The notes beneath the pieces were generated by a model. The model searched no databases. It had not been told where the DNA came from and saw nothing but the letters and a program-made list of their open reading frames with translations. This document shows positions 9,258-18,715 of a DNA stretch of 64,000 bases, one piece after another. The position numbers were made by a program, and so were the translations under genes. The DNA is taken from the NCBI GenBank assembly GCA_963765495.1, contig CAVXWP010000015.1:1-64000 (forward strand), read 5' to 3'. The stretch comes from Blastocatellia bacterium (GTDB lineage Bacteria > Acidobacteriota > Blastocatellia > UBA7656). The stretch's first letter is position 1. Each line of letters opens with the position of its first letter.

Positions 9258-9839
9258 ATGATAAAGATGGCAACCAACGCAATTTCGATCAAAGCCGATA
9301 CCGGCGTCAGCGCGGCACTCGCCGGTGATTCAATGAGCGGATTTGAAGAGCTCTATCGTAAACACTATCGCAGGGTCTATTCGATATGCCTCAGGATGAC
9401 GGGCAACGTGGCCGAGGCCGAGGACCTGACTCAGGAAGTATTCATACAACTGAGCCGCAAACTGGGATCGTTTCGCGGCGAGGCAGCCTTTACCACCTGG
9501 CTGCATCGTCTGACCGTAAACCAGGTGCTCATGCACTTTCGCAAGCGGTCTGTGAAATCCGAACTGACAACCGATGACGGGGAGATGCCCGACTCGGTTG
9601 ATCCCGAAACGATAAATCCGGAAGCGATGCCTATCGTTGATCGCATTGCGCTTGAGAATGCCATTGCTCAACTGCCCCCCGGCTACCGCTCGGTGTTCGT
9701 GCTGCACGACGTAGAAGGTTACGAACACGAAGAGATAGCCAGGATACTGGGATGCAGTTCCGGGACATCCAAGTCTCAGTTACACAAAGCGAGATTGAAG
9801 CTGCGTCGCCTGCTCCAGCAGCGCGCCGAAGCCGCCTGA
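9258..9839 (+). CDS. ECF RNA polymerase sigma factor
   Basis: [17 protein letters not shown] (region 2); [23 protein letters not shown]...[11 protein letters not shown] (region 4); GGAGG RBS. Confidence 0.95.
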
Positions 9840-9864
9840 AATATTTTCCGATCTGTGGGAAAAG

Positions 9865-9903
9865 AGGCTGCCAGTCATCGAACTGGCAGCCTTTGTAGTT
9901 TTT
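9865..9903 (+). terminator. Intrinsic terminator
   Basis: AGGCTGCCAGT-catcga-ACTGGCAGCCT stem followed by a T-rich tract. Confidence 0.75.
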
Positions 9904-10000
9904 ATATCACTGCGTTAAGTCTTAAAGTTTCCGGCTATATATACTTCTCACTTAAACCTCGATCTGCTAGCATGTGTTATCACTCTAACGCGGTCAGGAT

Positions 10001-10651
10001 TTGCTCGATTCTCGATCAAGAAACGAATCGGACAGAAAGAGGGTAGACGAACTGGCAAAGACCAAGATAGCGGAAAGCTTTGCAAAACGCGATGACGGCG
10101 AGCTTATTGCTGCCTGCCTCGAAGGCGACCCGGTCGCGTGGGAGGCGCTTGTGATGCGCTATCAGAGGCTGATCTATTCCATCCCGGTCAAGGCGAGGTT
10201 ATCGCCGGATGACGCGGCAGATATTTTCCAATCCGTATGTTTGAAGCTTTATGAAAAGCTGGCCTCTTTGCGCGATCACGGAAAGATAAGCTCCTGGCTG
10301 ATCACTACGACAAAGCGCGAATGCTGGCGGGTGGCCGCGCTCAACCGTAGAGAAGGCGCGCGCACAGACTCAGGCGAAGACGACTCACCTGATGGAGTAA
10401 GTCAGATTCCATCTCAGGGCCTTCTGGCCGACGAGCAGCGAGAAATCCTTGAACAACAGCAGATAATTCGCGAATCGGTCGAGTCGCTTTCCGAGCGGTG
10501 CAGAGATTTACTGACCATGTTATTTTATCAAAAAGATGACCTCAGTTATTCGGACATAGCCGTACGAATGAAGATGCCGGTTGCGTCAGTAGGCCCTACG
10601 CGCGCTCGATGCCTCGAAAAGTTAAGAAAGCTTTTAGAAGGCAAAATTTAA
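10001..10651 (+). CDS. ECF sigma factor (start codon uncertain)
   Basis: AWEALVMRYQRLIY, DAADIFQ, SWLITT, LSERCRDLL...SYSDIA...SVGPTRARCLEKLR. Confidence 0.92.
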   Translation: MLDSRSRNESDRKRVDELAKTKIAESFAKRDDGELIAACLEGDPVAWEALVMRYQRLIYSIPVKARLSPDDAADIFQSVCLKLYEKLASLRDHGKISSWLITTTKRECWRVAALNRREGARTDSGEDDSPDGVSQIPSQGLLADEQREILEQQQIIRESVESLSERCRDLLTMLFYQKDDLSYSDIAVRMKMPVASVGPTRARCLEKLRKLLEGKI

Positions 10652-10725
10652 TCGAAATTCATGTATTTTTTCTCGTCTCAGGGTCTCTGCTGTCATGTGA
10701 AAGGGTGGTAACCGGAGAAAAATCA

Positions 10726-11352
10726 ATGAGATGCCCCAGTTTTGAGAAAATTATAGATTATCTCGACGGCTCAATTGATACGGACGAGGCGGCCCGCACA
10801 AAGGCGCATCTTGAAACGGGTTGCTCGATGTGCGCGGCTACACAACAGTGGTACGAGAGGGTCAATCTATTAACATCGAGCGATGACCTGACGGAGCCGC
10901 CGCCATGGGTCTTAAAACGCGCGCTCAAATTATTTGAGAGTCAGCGCGCTCGCGGTTCCGTCATAGAGCGCATAGGCCGGGCCGTGGCTTCGCTTGTCTT
11001 TGACAGTCTTGCGCGGCCCGCCATAGCCGGGGTTCGCTCGACCGATACTGCAAATCGCCAGCTACTCTACAGAGCCGGCGATTACAATATAGATTTGCAG
11101 ATCGCTCCGATTGACGAAGCTCGCGCCGAATTGATAGGTCAGGTCCTGCGAGAAGGTGAAAACACCTTTCAATCTGTGGCCGAGCTTTCTCTGAACCTCA
11201 AAGGCGCAGGCGAAACGCAGCTTTCTTCGAAGACCAATCAACTCGGAGAGTTTGCATTCAATAACGTAGATCAGGGGAATTACGATCTGTCAATCGAGAC
11301 GCCCGAAGGCGTTATAACTATCCAGGGATTGCCTGTTACTCAGTCCCTTTAG
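10726..11352 (+). CDS. Soluble zinc-finger (zf-HC2/ZAS) anti-sigma-like protein with C-terminal carboxypeptidase-regulatory-like beta domain
   Basis: MRCP...DYLDG...HLETGCSMC; LVFDS...AGVR...RQLLY; TNQLGEFAFNNVDQGNYDL; no TM segment; GGAG RBS before ATG 10726. Confidence 0.8.
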   Translation: MRCPSFEKIIDYLDGSIDTDEAARTKAHLETGCSMCAATQQWYERVNLLTSSDDLTEPPPWVLKRALKLFESQRARGSVIERIGRAVASLVFDSLARPAIAGVRSTDTANRQLLYRAGDYNIDLQIAPIDEARAELIGQVLREGENTFQSVAELSLNLKGAGETQLSSKTNQLGEFAFNNVDQGNYDLSIETPEGVITIQGLPVTQSL

Positions 11353-11438
11353 GTTTTTCCGTTAAGTTTTTCCGGCCCACGCGGACTGAGATCACCCGCG
11401 ACTGAGAAGGTCAAAATCCAATTAAAACCGGGCTGGAC

Positions 11439-14315
11439 GTGTATGCGCAGAGCAGAAAAGTGAGCAACGAATTAGCAGAAAAATTGATGCGGGCCGAAAG
11501 CGCCGGGGCTTTCCTGAGCGAGCAAAACGGCTCTGCCGGGTGGCAGACGGTTGCGGCGCTCAAATCCGAAGTGGACCGCCTCGTTGGCTGCGATCTGAAA
11601 CTGGCCGATGGTCTTATCGCGCGCATAGATGAGTTGGCCGAGCTTTTAGGCGATCCCGTATCGCGCGCCTTCGCCGATGCGGGCCGCGCTCGCGCTCTTC
11701 ACTTTTCGGGACGCTATGAGGATGCTCGCGTTCTGATGCAGAGCGCCACGGATACTTTGCGTGAGGCACGCCTTAACTCGGAAGCGGCCTTCATACAGGT
11801 GCAGCAGGTTTTTACGCTCACGCAGATGGGGCGTTATGATGAGGCGCTTCGCACGGCCCGCGCCGCCCGCCGCGCGCTTTCTGGCGGAGAGCCCAGAGAC
11901 CTCGCTCAACTGGAATCGAATGTCGGCACGATCTATTACCGGCTCGACCGTTACAAGAAAGCGCTCCAGCATTATGACCGCGCCTACGAGATGTTTTCCG
12001 ATTCGGATGACTTTCACATGCGAGCGCTAATAGATTTCAACCGCTCAAATATCTTTACGGAGATGGACCGGCCCGCAGAGGCGCTTGCCCTGCTCGAAAG
12101 CGCCGCCGGAGGATTCGACCGGGCCGGGCAGAGCCTGTTTGCCGCCGAATCGCGTTTTCACATCGCATACCTACAGTTTCTTCGCGGCAGTTACAATCTA
12201 TCGCTTGCGAATTATTATCTGGTAAAAGACCGCCTCGCCGATCTCGGCAGCGCGCAATCGGTCGCCTGGTGCAATCAGGAAATAGCCGAGATATTGCTCG
12301 CTCTCAACGCCTTCGATGAAGCTGCGGAAAACGCCTCGCTTGCCCGCGCGAGTTTTACCGCGCTCAACATGCCTTATGAATCGGCGCAGGCGCTGCTCGT
12401 ACACGCGCTGGCCTCGATGGGGCTCAGACAGTTCGAGCAGGCGCAATCCGACCTCCTGACAACCCGCGATGTGTTTGCTGCCAACCGCAATCATGCTTTG
12501 ACCGCCCTTGTGGATACCTATCTGGCCGAACTGGCTATCCGCCGTCAGGATTACACCGAAGCCGCCGGCAGGGCCTCCGCCGCGCTTCGCGTCTTTTCCC
12601 GTCAAGGGCTTTCAATCCGTTCGGCCTATGCCAGATTGCTACAGGCCCGCGCCGCTTATCATCAGGGCGAAAGGGCAAAGGCCGCTCGAATAGCGAGAGC
12701 CGCGATCAAGAAGATCGAAGGCCGCCTCGCCCCGGCAGTCGCTTATCAGTGCTACAACTTGCTTGGCCGAATAGCTCGCGACCGGGGACGAAATTCCCAG
12801 GCTCTTGAAAGCTTTCGCCGCGCGGTCGAAATCATAGAGCAGATGCGCGGCGGGATAGCCACCGATGAATTCAAGGCCACCTTTCTGCAAGACAAAATTC
12901 AGTCTTACGAAGATGCCATCACGGCTTGTCTGGATGAAGGAAGCGAGCCGATGGTTGAAGAGGCGTTTCATTATGTAGAGTCGTCTAAATCACGCGCGCT
13001 GGCCGACCTGCTTGCGCGCTATGCGCGAGGCGAAGACCATCCTTCGACCTCCGGCGCTGACGGTGAGACTCGCGCGCGGTTGGCGAGGCTGGTTGAGGAT
13101 TTGAACTGGTACAGTTCGCACGCCGGGCTTGAAGATGAGAAGGGCGATCAGCGCAGCGCCGACACAGCCGACCGATACCGCAGCGCGGCAGTCCGTTGCG
13201 AGCGGCAGATAGCGCGGCTGTTTCGACGCCTCGAATCCGAAGGTTCCGATTTTGCAGACCCTCGGCGAATGCGCGCGGCATCCATCCTGGATTTGCGCAC
13301 GTCGCTTTACGAAGGCGAAACGGTCATCGAATACTTCACAACAGGCGACGAGGTGTCGGCTTTTGTCGCAACCCGCGACCGGGTCAAAGTCATCCGCGCC
13401 TTTGCCTCAAAACAGGAGGTCGAACACCATCTGTCCACGCTCCGGTTTCAACTGGAAAAATTCAATTACGGCCCCGAGTATGTTGATGCGCATTTCGGCC
13501 ACCTCCGCCGTGCAACCGACGAACATCTTTCGCGTCTCTATCAGGTAATATTTGCGCCTCTTGAATCTGCGGTTGAAACCGAACAGATCATAGTTATCCC
13601 TCACGGCCCGCTTCATTACGTACCCTTTCACGCCTTGCGCGGTGACGGGGAGTTTCTGGTTGAGCGATTCGAAATTTCTTATGCGCCAAGCGCATCGGTA
13701 CTCAAGCATTGCCGCGAGACGGCTTCAAATTTGAGGGCTCAATCTTCGGATCGCGGGAGGATGATCGCCCTCGGAGTTCCCGAGCGCGGCACGCCAAGCA
13801 TCGAAGACGAGATCCGCGCGCTTTCAAAGATATTTCCCGATGCCGTGAGCCTGACCGGACACGAGGCCACGCGCGACAATCTGTTGCGGCTCGCGCCCGA
13901 GGCCCGCTTCCTGCATCTGGCATCGCACGGTTATTTCCGGCGCGACAATCCTATGTTTTCATTTCTGAAGCTCGCCGATTCGCGCCTGAACTTTTACAGT
14001 CTGCTCGACATCCGAATGAACGCCGAGATGGTGACGCTTTCGGCGTGTCACACGGGCGTAAATATGATCTTTCCCGGCGACGAACTGCACGGGTTGATGC
14101 GAGGATTTCTTTACGCGGGCGTGCCGTCGCTGGTGGCGAGCCTCTGGGCCGTGAGCGACCGCTCGACCTCCGAACTGATGAGCGAGATGTATACACACAT
14201 CCGTGCCGGGGCTACAAAACGGGCGGCATTGCGCCAGGCTCAGCTTGCGATCAAGGACGCTTACGGGCATCCCTACTACTGGGCGCCGTTTATCCTGATG
14301 GGAGACCCGAATTGA
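11439..14315 (+). CDS. TPR-CHAT (caspase-like) protease
   Basis: Long TPR array; ESSKSRAL; IIPHGPLHYVPFHAL; catalytic dyad LHLASHG and VTLSACHTG; HPYYWAPFILMG end; no signal peptide. Confidence 0.93.
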   Translation: MYAQSRKVSNELAEKLMRAESAGAFLSEQNGSAGWQTVAALKSEVDRLVGCDLKLADGLIARIDELAELLGDPVSRAFADAGRARALHFSGRYEDARVLMQSATDTLREARLNSEAAFIQVQQVFTLTQMGRYDEALRTARAARRALSGGEPRDLAQLESNVGTIYYRLDRYKKALQHYDRAYEMFSDSDDFHMRALIDFNRSNIFTEMDRPAEALALLESAAGGFDRAGQSLFAAESRFHIAYLQFLRGSYNLSLANYYLVKDRLADLGSAQSVAWCNQEIAEILLALNAFDEAAENASLARASFTALNMPYESAQALLVHALASMGLRQFEQAQSDLLTTRDVFAANRNHALTALVDTYLAELAIRRQDYTEAAGRASAALRVFSRQGLSIRSAYARLLQARAAYHQGERAKAARIARAAIKKIEGRLAPAVAYQCYNLLGRIARDRGRNSQALESFRRAVEIIEQMRGGIATDEFKATFLQDKIQSYEDAITACLDEGSEPMVEEAFHYVESSKSRALADLLARYARGEDHPSTSGADGETRARLARLVEDLNWYSSHAGLEDEKGDQRSADTADRYRSAAVRCERQIARLFRRLESEGSDFADPRRMRAASILDLRTSLYEGETVIEYFTTGDEVSAFVATRDRVKVIRAFASKQEVEHHLSTLRFQLEKFNYGPEYVDAHFGHLRRATDEHLSRLYQVIFAPLESAVETEQIIVIPHGPLHYVPFHALRGDGEFLVERFEISYAPSASVLKHCRETASNLRAQSSDRGRMIALGVPERGTPSIEDEIRALSKIFPDAVSLTGHEATRDNLLRLAPEARFLHLASHGYFRRDNPMFSFLKLADSRLNFYSLLDIRMNAEMVTLSACHTGVNMIFPGDELHGLMRGFLYAGVPSLVASLWAVSDRSTSELMSEMYTHIRAGATKRAALRQAQLAIKDAYGHPYYWAPFILMGDPN

Positions 14316-14407
14316 GACCGACGAACATTGTTATATTTTTGTTGTCCTGTGCTCCGCGACGCTTGCGGGGTTGAATCGACATTATACTTGTAAGGCAGGA
14401 TAGAGAG

Positions 14408-16840
14408 ATGTATATGAAACGCAACAACGCACTTTTTACCGCTTCGATCAAGGCAGTTGCCCTGATAATAATTCTGCTCTGCACGGCCTCGGCTTTGCCC
14501 GCGCAGGCGCAAAACGGCGATCTTCCCGACTTCCGAAAGGGCGAAGTCATAGTCGAACTCAAGCCGGGCGTGGCGATTGATGACATCAACGCGCAATACA
14601 AGACTACTACGATCAAGCAGATTTACGGGACGAATTTCTATCTGCTGGCCACCAAGAAGAACAAGAAAGAGAAGAAGTGGCAAAAGAAGTTGTCCAAAGA
14701 CAGCCGGGTGTTGAGCGCATCGCTCAACCCTGTGATCACAAGCCCGCTAAATGTTTTCGGAAGATCGGTACTCGGATTTCCCGGCGACCGCCCTTTGCCG
14801 GGCCGTGTACAGCCTGATTACGCGGGTCAGCTTGATATGCTCAGCATGCGGGACGCGCAGTTGCGCTCGAAGGGCGAGGGCGTCGTCGTCGCGGTCATTG
14901 ATACGGGAGTAGCGCGCACTCACGCGGCTCTCGTCTCGCATCTCTGGGTGAGCGCGGGCGAGATCGCAGGCGACCTTATTGATAACGATCTGGACGGGCT
15001 TGTTGATGATGATCGCGGCTGGGATTTCGTAGATAACGACAACGACCCCTCGGAAGCCAATCCAGACCCCGAACACAACATCACGGGGCACGGCACTTTC
15101 ATCGCGGGGTTGATCGCGCTCATGGCTCCCGGAGCGCGCATTATGCCTGTGCGCGCATTCGCGCCCGAAGGTGTAAGCGATGCCTTCACCGTTGCTTCGG
15201 CAATCAAGTATGCTGCCGATCACAACGCGCAGGTCATCAATCTCAGCTTCGGCTCTCCCGATCAATCCGACGTGCTGCTTGATGCGATCATGTATGCCCG
15301 ACAGCGTGGCGCGGTGGTGATTGCGGCCGTAGGCAACGAAAACCAGAACACCGATTCGCATCCGCAGTTTCCCGCCGCCTATGTGACCGAGACTATGGGA
15401 GTGATGGCGGTTGACAATTCGGATCACAAGGCCGAGTTTTCGAATTTCGGCAGCAACGTATCGGTTTCAGCGCCGGGCGTCGGGCTTGTCAGCGCATTTC
15501 CCGGCGGAGCAAATGAAGACTATGCCGTATGGAGCGGGACTTCTTTTGCCGCGCCTCTGGCTTCGGCAGAAGCGGCCTTGATCCTGGGTGTTGATCCGAG
15601 ACACCCTGATCCGAGAGCTACTATCGAAAACACCGCTTCCAACATTGATAGCTCAAACCCGGGATTCGCGGGCAAAGTGGGTAAGGGCCGGATCAATCCG
15701 CTCGAAGCGGTTCGCAGCTTCAGTTCTACGGTAAATAACCACGCGGAGACGACGCTGATTTCCACGGGGGTCGAGCCGGGCGCTCAGGGCGAGGCCGAAA
15801 TTACGATTACCGCCTCCGAACAGGAGTTCGAGGTTACGGCCAGCGGGCTTAAGGTGCGCGCTCCTTACAAAGTAGTCGTAGACGGCGCAGTCGTAGTTGA
15901 CGGCAAATCAAACCCTCTGGCCAATACCAGTAACTTCGGTAATCTCAAAATAGAGTTTTCAACCATAGCTGATAATGACCACGTGCTGCTGCCTGCCGGG
16001 CTCATTCCAGTGAGCAACATCAAACACGTGGAAGTGCGCGACGATCAGGATCGAATCGTGCTTCAAGGCGATTTCGGCACAGGCGCAGGCGGCGGCGGGC
16101 AGGCGGTCGAGAAAGAGACGAAACTCGTCTCAACAGGAATCCTGCCGGATGCTAAAGGCGATGCCCGCGCGCAAATCGAGCCCGAGCGTCAAGAGCTTAG
16201 AATAAGGGCTGAAAACGTGACCGCCGGACTCACCTATAAGATAGTCGCAGACGGAATAAATATCGGTTCAGGTGTCGCGCAATCTGACTCGGACGGGTCG
16301 GGCTATCTCGAGATCAGGTTTACGAGCGACGGATCGAAAGGCCCGTTGCTTCCGCAATCGGTCCAGCCGGTGACATCTATCAAACACGTCGAGGTGCAAA
16401 ATCAGGCGGGGCAGGTCATCTTGCAGGGAGACTTCCAGCCCGGCAGTGGTAGCCTTGGCGGAGACGATAATGGAGGCGGAGACGACAACGGCGGTGGCGG
16501 CGGCGGTGGCAGCCAGGAAATCAGCAAAGACGTAAACCTCAGTCCTGCGGGGGCGAATCACTCGGCCGAAGGCAGGATAAAGCTTAAATCTTCCAGCGTG
16601 CGCGATGATCTGGAGATCGAAGCAAAAAAGATCAACCCCTCGACTCAGTACAATATCTACATTGATGGATTTTTGCTGGCCGGCGTCACTACAGACGGCT
16701 CGGGCGAGTTTAAGCTGGAATGGAGCAGCGCGGATTCGAGCAAATTGCCTTTGCCCGAGCAACTTCGCCCGTTGAGCGGTATTCATCACATAGAAATCCG
16801 CGACCCTTCGAATCAGGCGGTATTGTCGGGCGACCTGTAA
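14408..16840 (+). CDS. Secreted S8 subtilisin-like serine protease with three C-terminal ~100-aa repeats
   Basis: Signal peptide; VIDTG, HGTFIAG, AVGN, SGTSFAAP; repeats each ending I[KH]H[VI]E[VI]...[VI]L.GD[FL]. Confidence 0.93.
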   Translation: MYMKRNNALFTASIKAVALIIILLCTASALPAQAQNGDLPDFRKGEVIVELKPGVAIDDINAQYKTTTIKQIYGTNFYLLATKKNKKEKKWQKKLSKDSRVLSASLNPVITSPLNVFGRSVLGFPGDRPLPGRVQPDYAGQLDMLSMRDAQLRSKGEGVVVAVIDTGVARTHAALVSHLWVSAGEIAGDLIDNDLDGLVDDDRGWDFVDNDNDPSEANPDPEHNITGHGTFIAGLIALMAPGARIMPVRAFAPEGVSDAFTVASAIKYAADHNAQVINLSFGSPDQSDVLLDAIMYARQRGAVVIAAVGNENQNTDSHPQFPAAYVTETMGVMAVDNSDHKAEFSNFGSNVSVSAPGVGLVSAFPGGANEDYAVWSGTSFAAPLASAEAALILGVDPRHPDPRATIENTASNIDSSNPGFAGKVGKGRINPLEAVRSFSSTVNNHAETTLISTGVEPGAQGEAEITITASEQEFEVTASGLKVRAPYKVVVDGAVVVDGKSNPLANTSNFGNLKIEFSTIADNDHVLLPAGLIPVSNIKHVEVRDDQDRIVLQGDFGTGAGGGGQAVEKETKLVSTGILPDAKGDARAQIEPERQELRIRAENVTAGLTYKIVADGINIGSGVAQSDSDGSGYLEIRFTSDGSKGPLLPQSVQPVTSIKHVEVQNQAGQVILQGDFQPGSGSLGGDDNGGGDDNGGGGGGGSQEISKDVNLSPAGANHSAEGRIKLKSSSVRDDLEIEAKKINPSTQYNIYIDGFLLAGVTTDGSGEFKLEWSSADSSKLPLPEQLRPLSGIHHIEIRDPSNQAVLSGDL

Positions 16841-16939: not shown

Positions 16940-18715
16940 ATGAACTCGCGCGTGCTTGCGGTCCTGCTCATTTTGCTCTGCCCCGCTTGCGGGCGTAGCG
17001 GCTTGCCCGCAGCTTCAGATACCGGCATTCAATCATCTCAGATCACAGGCGAGACGATGCTCTGGCTGTTTAATCGGGCGAGAGCGCGTCTGGGCGGCGA
17101 GAGCCGGATCGAGGATCGCCCCTCTCCACGTCAGGTGATTGAATCGCGCCCGACAACGATTTTTCTAACCGTTTTCGCGCGAGGCCAGATACTAAATCCC
17201 GACTCACGTATTGGAACGGGGAACGGTTTGCTTGCGGCACTCGATTCGGCGCTCGATTCTATCAAGCCCTCAAAATCTGCATCCGAGCCTGACCGGGTTC
17301 AAATAGATGTTCTCAAAGACAGCTTTATCCCTCTCGGACGCCCCGATGATTTCACGGGGCTTTCGGCGGCCCGTTTGATTGACATAGGCGCGGAAGGGCT
17401 GGCCGTTCGCGCGGGCAAGAGTACGTATTATTTGATGCCTGCCGAGATCATCTACCGATCAATAGTTGATGACGACCCCGACGCTCAATCGGCTGCCGAT
17501 CTGCTGGATCGCGTCATGACTTATACGCATCTTTCGCCGGGCGCATGGAGATCGTCCGCTGTCAGGCTAAGCCGCTTTCGCACCATTTCATTTATAGAAA
17601 ACGCCGCGCGCGATTCGGCGCTCAAGCTCACGGGCGCGCTCGTTACGGTCGAAGAACCATCCAAACAAACGCTCCTTTCGGCGGCTCGAAGTGGCGGCGA
17701 TTATTTGATTCGCGCGCAAAAACCTACGGGGCGCTTCTATTATTCTTACGAGCCGCTCGAAGACAAAATAAACACCCGGGGCTACAACATAGTTCGTCAC
17801 GCGGGAGCGGCATTCTCTCTGTTTGAGCTTTACTCCGTCACGCGCGATTCGCGCTATCTGGAAGCGGCCCGCCAGGCGATAAGCTTTCTCAAGTCGCGGT
17901 TTCGCGCTGCGCGAGATAAAGATTCGATCTATGTTCTGGATAATGACGGCAAGGCAAAACTCGGCGCAAACGGGCTGGCGCTTGTGGCGCTGGCTCGGCA
18001 GATAGAGCTGGACCCGCAATCGTCGGATCGCAAAAACGCCGAGCAACTGGCGCATTTAATTCTAGCCTTGCAGCGCAAGGATGGCTCCTTTAGGAGCTAT
18101 CATCCGGTGCGAGGCGACGAACCGGAAGGAAGCGTTTCGCTTTACTATCCTGGCGAGGCCATTCTCGGACTGGTCATGCTCTATCGTGTGAACGGCGACA
18201 GGCGATTGCTTGACTCTGCGCGCAGGGGCGCAAATTATCTGATCGCATCCGAGCGCAAGATGGATAGGCTTCCGCCGGATGCGTGGCTTATGCAGGCGCT
18301 CGAAGCGCTTTGCGCCGTAAAGCGCGAGCCGGAATATGTCGAACACGCGATGCGGCTGGCGGAGGCGATGATGGCCGATCAATACGCCGCAAACAGCCCG
18401 GCGGGCTACCCGGGCGGATTCGGCCCGGGAATGCCGCGCTCGACTCCGGCGGCGGCGCGGGCCGAAGGCATGGTCGCCGCATATCGTTTAGCGCGGTTGA
18501 CGGGAGACGCACGCGCGCCGAAAATCCTTGCTTCGCTCAAATCGTCTGCCCGGTTTCAGTTGTCTCAGCAATTCGACGCCGACAACAGCTTTTTTCTTCC
18601 GAATCCTGAACGAGCCACGGGGGGATTTCGCGCCGGGATGACTTCTATGCGAATCCGCATAGACTTCGTGCAGCACAGTATCTCTGCTCTGCTTGGCTTG
18701 GCGCAGATAATCTGA
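16940..18715 (+). CDS. Exported (possibly lipo-) protein with C-terminal alpha/alpha-barrel-like region; function unknown
   Basis: N-terminal hydrophobic stretch ending CPAC; motifs YNIVRHAG, KLGANGLA, YYPGEA, RIDFVQH. Confidence 0.6.
   Translation: MNSRVLAVLLILLCPACGRSGLPAASDTGIQSSQITGETMLWLFNRARARLGGESRIEDRPSPRQVIESRPTTIFLTVFARGQILNPDSRIGTGNGLLAALDSALDSIKPSKSASEPDRVQIDVLKDSFIPLGRPDDFTGLSAARLIDIGAEGLAVRAGKSTYYLMPAEIIYRSIVDDDPDAQSAADLLDRVMTYTHLSPGAWRSSAVRLSRFRTISFIENAARDSALKLTGALVTVEEPSKQTLLSAARSGGDYLIRAQKPTGRFYYSYEPLEDKINTRGYNIVRHAGAAFSLFELYSVTRDSRYLEAARQAISFLKSRFRAARDKDSIYVLDNDGKAKLGANGLALVALARQIELDPQSSDRKNAEQLAHLILALQRKDGSFRSYHPVRGDEPEGSVSLYYPGEAILGLVMLYRVNGDRRLLDSARRGANYLIASERKMDRLPPDAWLMQALEALCAVKREPEYVEHAMRLAEAMMADQYAANSPAGYPGGFGPGMPRSTPAAARAEGMVAAYRLARLTGDARAPKILASLKSSARFQLSQQFDADNSFFLPNPERATGGFRAGMTSMRIRIDFVQHSISALLGLAQII

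Follow-up and report, generated by a model that had tools for sequence, protein, structure and literature searches.

Does a caspase-like protease that is encoded apart from any CRISPR locus control a sigma factor by cutting its inhibitor? This question is raised by positions 10001-16840 of the window, the stretch of 64,000 nucleotides from a Blastocatellia bacterium, a soil acidobacterium (contig CAVXWP010000015.1, assembly GCA_963765495.1) that was analysed here. Four co-oriented open reading frames (ORFs) in this region encode a sigma factor of the extracytoplasmic function (ECF) type, a small soluble protein and two proteases, namely a cytoplasmic TPR-CHAT enzyme and a secreted subtilase of the S8 family. 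An earlier model-made reading of the letters (the sequence-only reading) had described the same four co-oriented genes, and all four ORFs were found on the + strand. The preferred reading is that the cassette is a protease-gated sigma switch similar to the catalogued ECF54 cassettes, and the whole five-step model is given a probability of roughly 45%. The unit itself, the assignment of the anti-sigma factor and the wiring from sigma factor to protease are supported computationally. The features on which the argument is built are as follows.

9945..9973, + strand: candidate housekeeping-type promoter of the sigma gene (TTCTCA, 17 nt, TAGCAT, with TG before the -10)
10001..10651, + strand: ECF sigma factor, 216 aa from a TTG start, the true start being uncertain
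10660..10689, + strand: candidate ECF-type promoter, ATGTATTTTT-N-CTCTG, 11 nt after the sigma stop
10726..11352, + strand: predicted soluble anti-sigma factor, 208 aa, with a ZAS-type zinc domain and a beta-sandwich
11439..14315, + strand: predicted cytoplasmic TPR-CHAT caspase-like protease, 958 aa, with about 24 TPR-like helices and CHAT from about residue 625
14408..16840, + strand: predicted secreted S8 subtilase, 810 aa, with a signal peptide, fervidolysin-type prodomain, catalytic domain and three C-terminal repeats

The gaps between the genes were 74, 86 and 92 nt in the order sigma, anti-sigma, CHAT and S8, and no convincing terminator was found between the four genes. The ORF of the small protein was listed from 10609. 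Its start was placed at the methionine of MRCPSF (10726, with GGAG upstream) because both paralogues and most orthologues begin there.

The host genome (7.3 Mb in 17 contigs, with 15 CHAT matches) showed three paralogous four-gene cassettes, one within the window and one each on contigs 9 and 2, with the same gene order and 48-64% identity. In the phylum sample, the small-protein profile was run on 401 genomes and produced matches in 66, a tally which counts the window's own genome and one weak match in G049. The best E-value was ≤1e-10 in 23 of the 401 genomes. The cassette is common: full-length homologues of the anti-sigma factor were found in 23 of the 401 sampled genomes and also in Chloroflexota- and Actinomycetota-labelled records. 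Neighbourhoods of the small protein were counted at 34 sites in 23 further genomes from the sample; the sigma gene stood beside it at 29, CHAT at 27, S8 at 24 and all four genes at 19. Public genomes were also scanned with a nine-sequence sigma alignment and the best 80 of 259 relatives were kept; these carried the labels Blastocatellia, Acidobacteriota, Terriglobia and several Chloroflexota classes, with a few 'uncultured Clostridia'. Downstream partners were counted in the 56 sigma-seeded loci with at least 7.5 kb of flanking DNA downstream. The anti-sigma gene was present in 51, CHAT in 52, S8 in 49 and all three in 48, with 8 loci incomplete, and the order sigma, anti-sigma, CHAT, S8 was kept in 42 of the 56. 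Overall, the co-occurrence of the four genes is far beyond chance, and the module that the sequence-only reading had drawn from a single locus recurred in this neighbourhood survey.

Pairwise distances of the four proteins were correlated across 67 complete cassettes with r of 0.83-0.96, partly reflecting shared species history, and the highest value was between anti-sigma and CHAT (0.956). Each of the genome's own three cassettes was nearest to a cassette of another genome and not to its sisters, which indicates that the duplications were old, took in the entire cassette and were followed by evolution of each cassette as a unit.

The wiring of the cassette was examined through its promoters. 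A motif with the consensus aTGTATTTTT-N-CTCTA was found behind the sigma gene, and its window copy (10660-10689) faces the anti-sigma, CHAT and S8 genes, which makes those genes the likely regulon. This copy was the sole match in the 64 kb window, where 0.26 matches were expected. A search for GTAYYT-N15-18-YTCYD within -40 to +130 of the sigma stop found the motif in 62 of 79 loci; among the 18 loci labelled Chloroflexota it was present in 16, and among the 61 labelled Acidobacteriota or otherwise in 46. The spacer was 16 nt in 55 of the 62 motif loci, and the offset from the sigma stop was mostly 2-27 nt; elsewhere the pattern occurred 62 times in 1.18 Mb on both strands. A -35-like element after the sigma stop was present in 79 of 112 loci, where the background rate was 0.026 per 150 nt. 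One subgroup of more distant loci conserved the -35 part with a -10 of CACTGT, and the second paralogue showed a variant promoter, GTACCT...CTCTT. The conservation and position of the post-sigma motif are observed; we infer that it is the cognate promoter of the cassette sigma factor and is read by it. The claim of the sequence-only reading that the sigma factor induces the exported protease is consistent with this arrangement.

An extra gene of 1.2-2.7 kb was present between the sigma and anti-sigma genes in 17 loci (e.g. L035:9210-10259 and L036:1142-2374); one example was DUF5666/CusF-like and another had no family. In loci with an inserted gene the motif remained with the sigma gene, so the inserted gene would be sigma-dependent too. 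A further promoter before S8 was rejected, as the enriched upstream k-mers were the conserved coding end of CHAT.

Genome-wide, a position weight matrix (PWM) scan for the motif gave four hits against none in a reversed-sequence null, and two of the four were cassettes, including the window's site at 10660-10689. A strict regular-expression scan of the genome gave seven promoter sites against about 3.5 expected by arithmetic, and the PWM scan is taken as the better test of the two. The two PWM hits outside cassettes were G000:C4:281278 (+) (L149 site 379) and G000:C1:1117378 (-) (L147 site 4079). One of them was upstream of a DUF1800/DUF1501 gene pair. The other preceded an rpmE-like ORF by about 300 nt, and after this ORF came DUF1385 and a release-factor gene (PCRF/RF-1 domains). 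The stretch behind the extra site in L147, up to the rpmE-like ORF, contained no ORF and no Rfam family.

For the sigma gene itself, the extended -10 of the promoter candidate is TGCTAGCAT (9965-9973). The pattern TGnTAnnnT was found at the same relative place in about 40 of 78 related loci and before both paralogous cassettes.

The sigma factor of the window matched Sigma70_r2 (E 3e-10) and TIGR02937 (sigma70-ECF; 81 bits with a cut-off of 42.9), and its profile showed SigW (5wuq_A, E 5e-18) among the top matches in the PDB. No transmembrane-like segment was found in 81 sigma factors. Cys39, Cys167 and Cys204 were present in 66, 67 and 67 of 67 cassettes, and Cys167 and Cys204, both in region 4, were also present in the sigma factor of Nonomuraea; this near-invariance hints that the sigma factor itself may hold a disulfide or a metal site. 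A match to a Streptomyces plasmid sits in a polyketide cluster and was discarded as unrelated.

By profile, the small protein is a ZAS-type anti-sigma factor. Its family profile matched RsiW in the PDB (5wuq_C, E 7e-7, residues 2-76), followed by the N-domain of DdvA (8rlz_A, E 2.8e-4; full DdvA E 0.009) and ChrR (E 1.7e-3), with weak matches to RslA and RsrA (E 0.67 for the latter). The zinc ligand pattern comprises C3 followed by H28-x4-C33-x2-C36, in which H-x4-C is one residue over the canonical H-x3-C. H28, C33 and C36 were conserved in 96 of 104 homologues, and the first ligand was C or H in 55 of 67 cassettes. In addition, one homologue was called 'anti-sigma factor RsiW' by its source, and one 432-aa protein (P0095) showed a sigma factor (39% identical to that of the window, E 2e-34) fused to an anti-sigma homologue; as it comes from a single contig only, this fusion may be an assembly or frame artefact. 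No longer form fused to CHAT was found, which is weak evidence as the search was swamped by giant proteins with carboxypeptidase-regulatory repeats. A tblastn search of plasmids with the anti-sigma gave no match. The 50%-identity library contained 1047 family representatives at E ≤1e-30. Giant repeat proteins inflate this number, yet among the best 150 family matches more than 100 were about 200 aa and full length.

An AlphaFold2 model of the small protein (28-sequence alignment) had a mean predicted local distance difference test (pLDDT) score of 87.1. It showed an N-domain of three helices (6-13, 19-30 and 34-52) bearing C3, H28, C33 and C36, two further helices within 60-83, a beta-strand at 85-96 with A-x-L-x-F-D-S, a low-confidence flexible loop at 97-109 and an Ig/transthyretin-like beta-sandwich at 110-204. 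Residues 103-105 were the sole stretch with pLDDT below 50 and contain Arg104 (codon 11035-11037), which was invariant in 104 of 104 homologues, as were Gly138 and Phe176; Asp93 was present in 100 of the 104, with Glu in the remaining four. The beta-sandwich resembled macroglobulin MG, transthyretin-like and subtilase C-terminal domains with Z of 6-8.4, which is the range of common folds, and the C-terminal Pfam matches to CarboxypepD_reg and SdrD_B were weak. A Foldseek search with the model gave no match at E ≤0.001. The highest 19-residue hydropathy of the window protein was 1.37, and no transmembrane-like segment was found in 69 homologues, none of which reached a hydropathy of 1.6. Therefore, the sequence-only reading was right in describing a protein with an HxxxxCxxC motif and no transmembrane segment, and its assignment to the ZAS type was borne out by the profile match to RsiW. 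Its linker, said to run from LVFDS to AGVR, needs correction: the model predicts that LVFDS forms a beta-strand belonging to the C-terminal domain, and AGVR falls in the flexible loop after it.

To our knowledge, CHAT proteases are abundant in bacteria and only two have a known job, both acting on sigma factors (craspase and, putatively, DdvA). The CHAT domain of the window protein was detected at E 2e-66 and many TPR families matched. The catalytic His830 (13926-13928) and Cys870 (14046-14048) were each present in 67 of 67 cassettes and no N-terminal hydrophobic segment was found in the window TPR-CHAT, in agreement with the intact dyad and cytoplasmic location read from the letters at the outset. 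A model from 32 sequences (pLDDT 87.6, predicted template modelling score 0.84) showed a long TPR solenoid followed by the CHAT domain. Its best Foldseek match was Csx29 in the Cas7-11/Csx29/Csx30 complex (8eey_B, E 5e-18, target template modelling score 0.52), followed in order by human separase (about 3e-17), more Csx29 entries and DdvA (4-7e-13). The sequence profile of the CHAT domain also matched Csx29 best (E 2e-10). However, the protein falls outside the Csx29 family, with an NF041237 score of 62.3 bits against a cut-off of 300. The three cassette copies scored 52-65 bits with this model, no other match in the genome exceeded 24.7 bits, and none in the genome was above the family cut-off.

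The subtilase of the window matched Peptidase_S8 (PF00082, E 2e-42) and a fervidolysin-type prodomain. Of its triad, Asp165 and His228 were conserved in all 67 cassettes and Ser379 in 66 of them, and its N-terminus was signal-peptide-like; the secreted S8 protease with intact triad of the sequence-only reading was thereby recovered. In 52 of 55 S8 proteins the N-terminus was strongly hydrophobic, and a conserved prodomain came after it. From these N-termini the subtilase is predicted to be exported, while the sigma factor, anti-sigma and CHAT protease are predicted to be cytoplasmic. The S8 tail (15740-16840, residues about 445-810) was composed of three internal repeats, each about 115 aa long and without a match in Pfam; an Atlas search returned unnamed clusters only, mostly from Verrucomicrobiota, with scores of at most 0.90. 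The repeats were also compared with the anti-sigma domain and found to be unrelated (hhalign probability 2.5%).

Taken as a protease-gated switch, the cassette would work as follows. The sigma gene would be expressed from its own housekeeping-type promoter, as the conserved extended -10 suggests, and the anti-sigma would hold the sigma factor inactive through its N-terminal ZAS domain, as suggested by the profile homology to RsiW, DdvA and ChrR and by the one fusion. A cue, sensed by the long TPR solenoid, would activate the cytoplasmic CHAT protease. From the analogy with known systems and the invariant Arg loop, we infer that CHAT would then cut the anti-sigma in its C-terminal half, with the Arg104 loop or the neighbouring A-x-L-x-F-D-S strand as the candidate site. 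The sigma-binding fragment would be degraded, as proposed for Csx30 in craspase. The freed sigma factor would read the promoter that directly follows the stop codon of its own gene and would transcribe anti-sigma, CHAT and S8, giving the exported subtilase as output, more protease for as long as the cue lasts and fresh anti-sigma as reset. The three paralogous cassettes would be three parallel circuits, one of them with a variant promoter. In the interpretation given by the sequence-only reading, the unit, the ZAS anti-sigma and the promoter wiring have held up, and the proteolytic step is carried over as a proposal by analogy.

Several observations weigh against this model. At the start of the circuit, a consensus promoter scan missed the 9945-9973 candidate, which has 8 of 12 matches and is below the threshold; it is a weak call for this reason. 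The other promoter does not precede the sigma gene itself, an unusual arrangement among ECF operons. For the inhibitor, a single-sequence search gave zf-HC2 of Pfam at E 0.0026 and 18.2 bits, under the cut-off of 22.2, and the structural likeness of the N-domain to known anti-sigma factors was weak (RsiW with Z 6.0 at rank 44, ChrR with E 0.019). The whole zinc region was missing in 5 of 34 aligned homologues, all of one genus (L058, L062, L064, L065 and L066), with sigma, CHAT and S8 retained. It was also missing in the Nonomuraea homologue (L153:9533-10003), again with sigma, CHAT and S8 beside it. These members indicate that the zinc domain is dispensable in some lineages and that the conserved core is the C-terminal part, comprising helix 4 and the beta half. 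With regard to the cleavage step, the invariant loop Arg104 could equally be a structural or docking residue, and the known craspases cut after Met or Leu and not Arg, according to excerpts of PMC11506125. With regard to the output, S8 was missing in 7 of the 56 sigma-seeded loci, and in one locus (L063:3143-5149, - strand) its place was taken by a fusion of a Peptidase_C14 caspase with an FGE-sulfatase domain.

The same zinc site could instead be the sensor. In such a redox or thiol switch the ZAS domain would respond as in RsrA, and CHAT and S8 would be regulon members only, with no part in the release of the sigma factor. The C/H-H-C-C ligand set and the three nearly invariant sigma cysteines would suit it, as would the promoter that puts CHAT and S8 downstream of the sigma factor. 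However, the cassette persists in the lineages without a zinc region, the C-terminal domain with Arg104 is the most conserved part of the protein, the distances of anti-sigma and CHAT co-vary most tightly of all and the match to RsrA was poor. A redox switch is judged unlikely.

The tight co-variation of anti-sigma and CHAT, together with their adjacent or overlapping genes in many loci, can also be read in the opposite direction, since the CHAT fold is related to that of separase, which securin holds. The beta-sandwich half would then inhibit CHAT as a pseudosubstrate or chaperone, the real substrates would lie elsewhere and the sigma factor would only couple the expression of inhibitor and protease. 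No evidence for other CHAT substrates was found, and both the ZAS domain and the sigma-factor fusion point to sigma control as the primary role, which leaves this inversion rather unlikely.

The cassette was compared with the catalogued ECF54 group. Excerpts of PMC7826278 (Casas-Pastor et al. 2021) describe ECF54 (after Huang et al. 2015) as 100% actinobacterial, with a 'lack of putative AS factor' (that is, anti-sigma factor); position +1 is occupied by a carboxypeptidase-regulatory-like protein, +2 or -1 by a subtilase and +3 or -2 by a TPR-CHAT protein. They predict a promoter with -35 GTATCAG and -10 CTCC. Section 3.3 of PMC8999054, as excerpted, places the group under 'regulated by proteolysis' as a proposal only. 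The window contains the same four gene kinds, namely the sigma factor, a +1 carboxypeptidase-regulatory-like beta protein, the subtilase and TPR-CHAT, and shares the promoter type in variant form (aTGTATTTTT / CTCTA against GTATCAG / CTCC). The differences are in phylum, with Acidobacteriota and Chloroflexota-labelled relatives against 100% Actinobacteria; in the +1 protein, which has a full ZAS domain in the window whereas ECF54 is described without an anti-sigma; in layout, with the order sigma, anti-sigma, CHAT, S8 against subtilase at -1 and CHAT at -2 in the ECF54 layout compared; and in the promoter, which is behind the sigma gene in the window and before the operon in ECF54.

A cassette of Nonomuraea gerenzanensis, arranged in the ECF54 layout and with a homologue for each of the window's four genes, showed TPR-CHAT on the opposite strand, followed by S8, a sigma factor (39% identical) and a 156-aa protein. 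This protein matched the small-protein profile at E 1.6e-10 (positions 49-192) and retains A-x-L-x-Y-D-S, an Arg equivalent to Arg104, G-Q and G-x-F, with no zinc domain. The divergent promoter region before the operon contains GATGTATCAG-N-CTCTCTG, which matches the ECF54 prediction. Judged by gene context and promoter, the window cassette is related to that of ECF54 and comes from a different phylum. The gene combination is therefore not new: it has been catalogued as the ECF54 context and is present here as a variant with a complete anti-sigma domain and another layout. On whether the gene set had been characterised before, which the sequence-only reading could not confirm, the catalogue entry gives a positive answer as far as cataloguing goes, with the caveat that the comparison with catalogued groups may have missed later ECF groups of similar context. 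A full-text literature search found no experimental study of the CRISPR-free cassette.

The ECF54 literature reads the group in another way, in which there is no functional anti-sigma, CHAT and/or the subtilase degrade the sigma factor directly and the +1 protein is an adaptor or substrate-recognition module. This was proposed for ECF54 in the excerpted section 3.3 of PMC8999054 and in the supplement of PMC7826278, and the zinc-less +1 proteins of one acidobacterial genus and of Nonomuraea would fit it. In the window, however, the +1 protein has the full ZAS domain that matches RsiW at E 7e-7, 96 of 104 homologues retain its H28, C33 and C36, and the subtilase, being exported, cannot meet a cytoplasmic sigma factor. 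Direct degradation is quite unlikely for this cassette.

RsiW of Bacillus subtilis is a membrane protein and is cut by membrane proteases, whereas the window inhibitor is soluble and its candidate protease is cytoplasmic and caspase-like. In the solved SigW/RsiW pair (5wuq), RsiW was the best match of the anti-sigma among known structures and SigW was close to the top for the sigma factor; RsiW is also inactivated by regulated proteolysis, as cited in excerpts of PMC10028731. DdvS/DdvA of Myxococcus xanthus resembles the window in having an ECF sigma factor, a CHCC-type zinc anti-sigma domain and a TPR-CHAT with an intact His/Cys dyad. In the excerpted text of PMC11506125, DdvA is a single transmembrane chain that fuses ZAS, TPR and CHAT, with a periplasmic dimeric TPR-CHAT without a three-helix motif (8rot, 8rw5 and 8rlz); it controls an island of cyclic-oligonucleotide-based anti-phage signalling (CBASS) and CRISPR genes, and its cleavage is reported there as not yet demonstrated. 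The window differs in its separate soluble cytoplasmic anti-sigma and CHAT and in its subtilase companion.

The type III-E craspase (Cas7-11, Csx29, Csx30 and CASP-sigma; PMC10028731, excerpts) is like the proposed circuit in its cytoplasmic TPR-CHAT and soluble sigma inhibitor. There, the N-domain of Csx30 binds the sigma factor, and the cut falls in the C-terminal part and leaves an unstable N-fragment. Unlike craspase, the cassette would have no RNA activation, and the window showed no CRISPR-like direct repeats in positions 1-32000, although Cas7-11 was not searched for. Its inhibitor is of the ZAS type, with no Csx30-named chain among its 13 PDB matches, and its unit includes a secreted subtilase that craspase does not. 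The absence of repeats in that range and of any genome match over the Csx29 cut-off agreed with the CRISPR-independent character claimed for the module from the letters. A bolder version of the protease-gated switch, in which it acts as a stand-alone cytoplasmic signalling device from caspase to sigma factor, older than the CRISPR-linked craspase or parallel to it, with a cut in the universally conserved Arg loop of the beta-sandwich half, a private promoter and several insulated copies (three here, one with a shifted promoter) that serve as parallel sensory channels and each release a dedicated exported protease, is considered possible and somewhat doubtful.

If the protease-gated switch is correct, it would provide a simple CRISPR-free system for learning what a bacterial TPR-CHAT senses and how its substrate is chosen, and the published view of ECF54-type sigma factors as lacking an anti-sigma would be corrected. 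Orthogonal genetic switches would profit from the small private promoter and from there being several paralogues, and all parts of the cassette are predicted to be soluble or easily expressed.

The neighbours of the cassette in the window were an M1 peptidase, an ECF sigma factor, a GH127-like protein, a phosphatase and RecN. PADLOC defence models gave no matches beyond generic TPR and subtilase models. Finally, in an anti-phage or conflict system TPR-CHAT would sense a phage protein and trigger defensive or suicidal proteolysis. In favour of such a system, phage defence is the role of craspase and DdvA/DdvS, the nearest relatives that have been characterised. It is very unlikely given these generic PADLOC matches, the housekeeping neighbourhood (M1 peptidase, RecN and phosphatase) and three old, vertically kept paralogues nearest to orthologues elsewhere, which resembles signal transduction more than it does a defence island.

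The ECF sigma gene directly upstream of the cassette (9258-9839, + strand) is an orphan, SigE-like with no adjoining anti-sigma, and is separated from the cassette by one further feature.

9863..9894, + strand: strong intrinsic terminator-like hairpin of 13 pairs and a T run, which closes the upstream orphan ECF sigma gene and divides it from the cassette

This hairpin was kept in the aligned orthologues. The closest orthologous cassettes also retain this upstream sigma gene, and a 62%-identical paralogue of the orphan is located on contig 9, away from any cassette. On the other side, the ORF after S8 (16940-18715) is GH127-like and is not part of the repeated unit in the genome. In one related locus (L059), heptamer repeats of the GGACAAT/GGTCAGT type fill the spacer from sigma to anti-sigma directly after the sigma stop. 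Another CHAT gene of the host genome (G000:C9:677865-678764) showed an in-frame TAG within its CHAT match.

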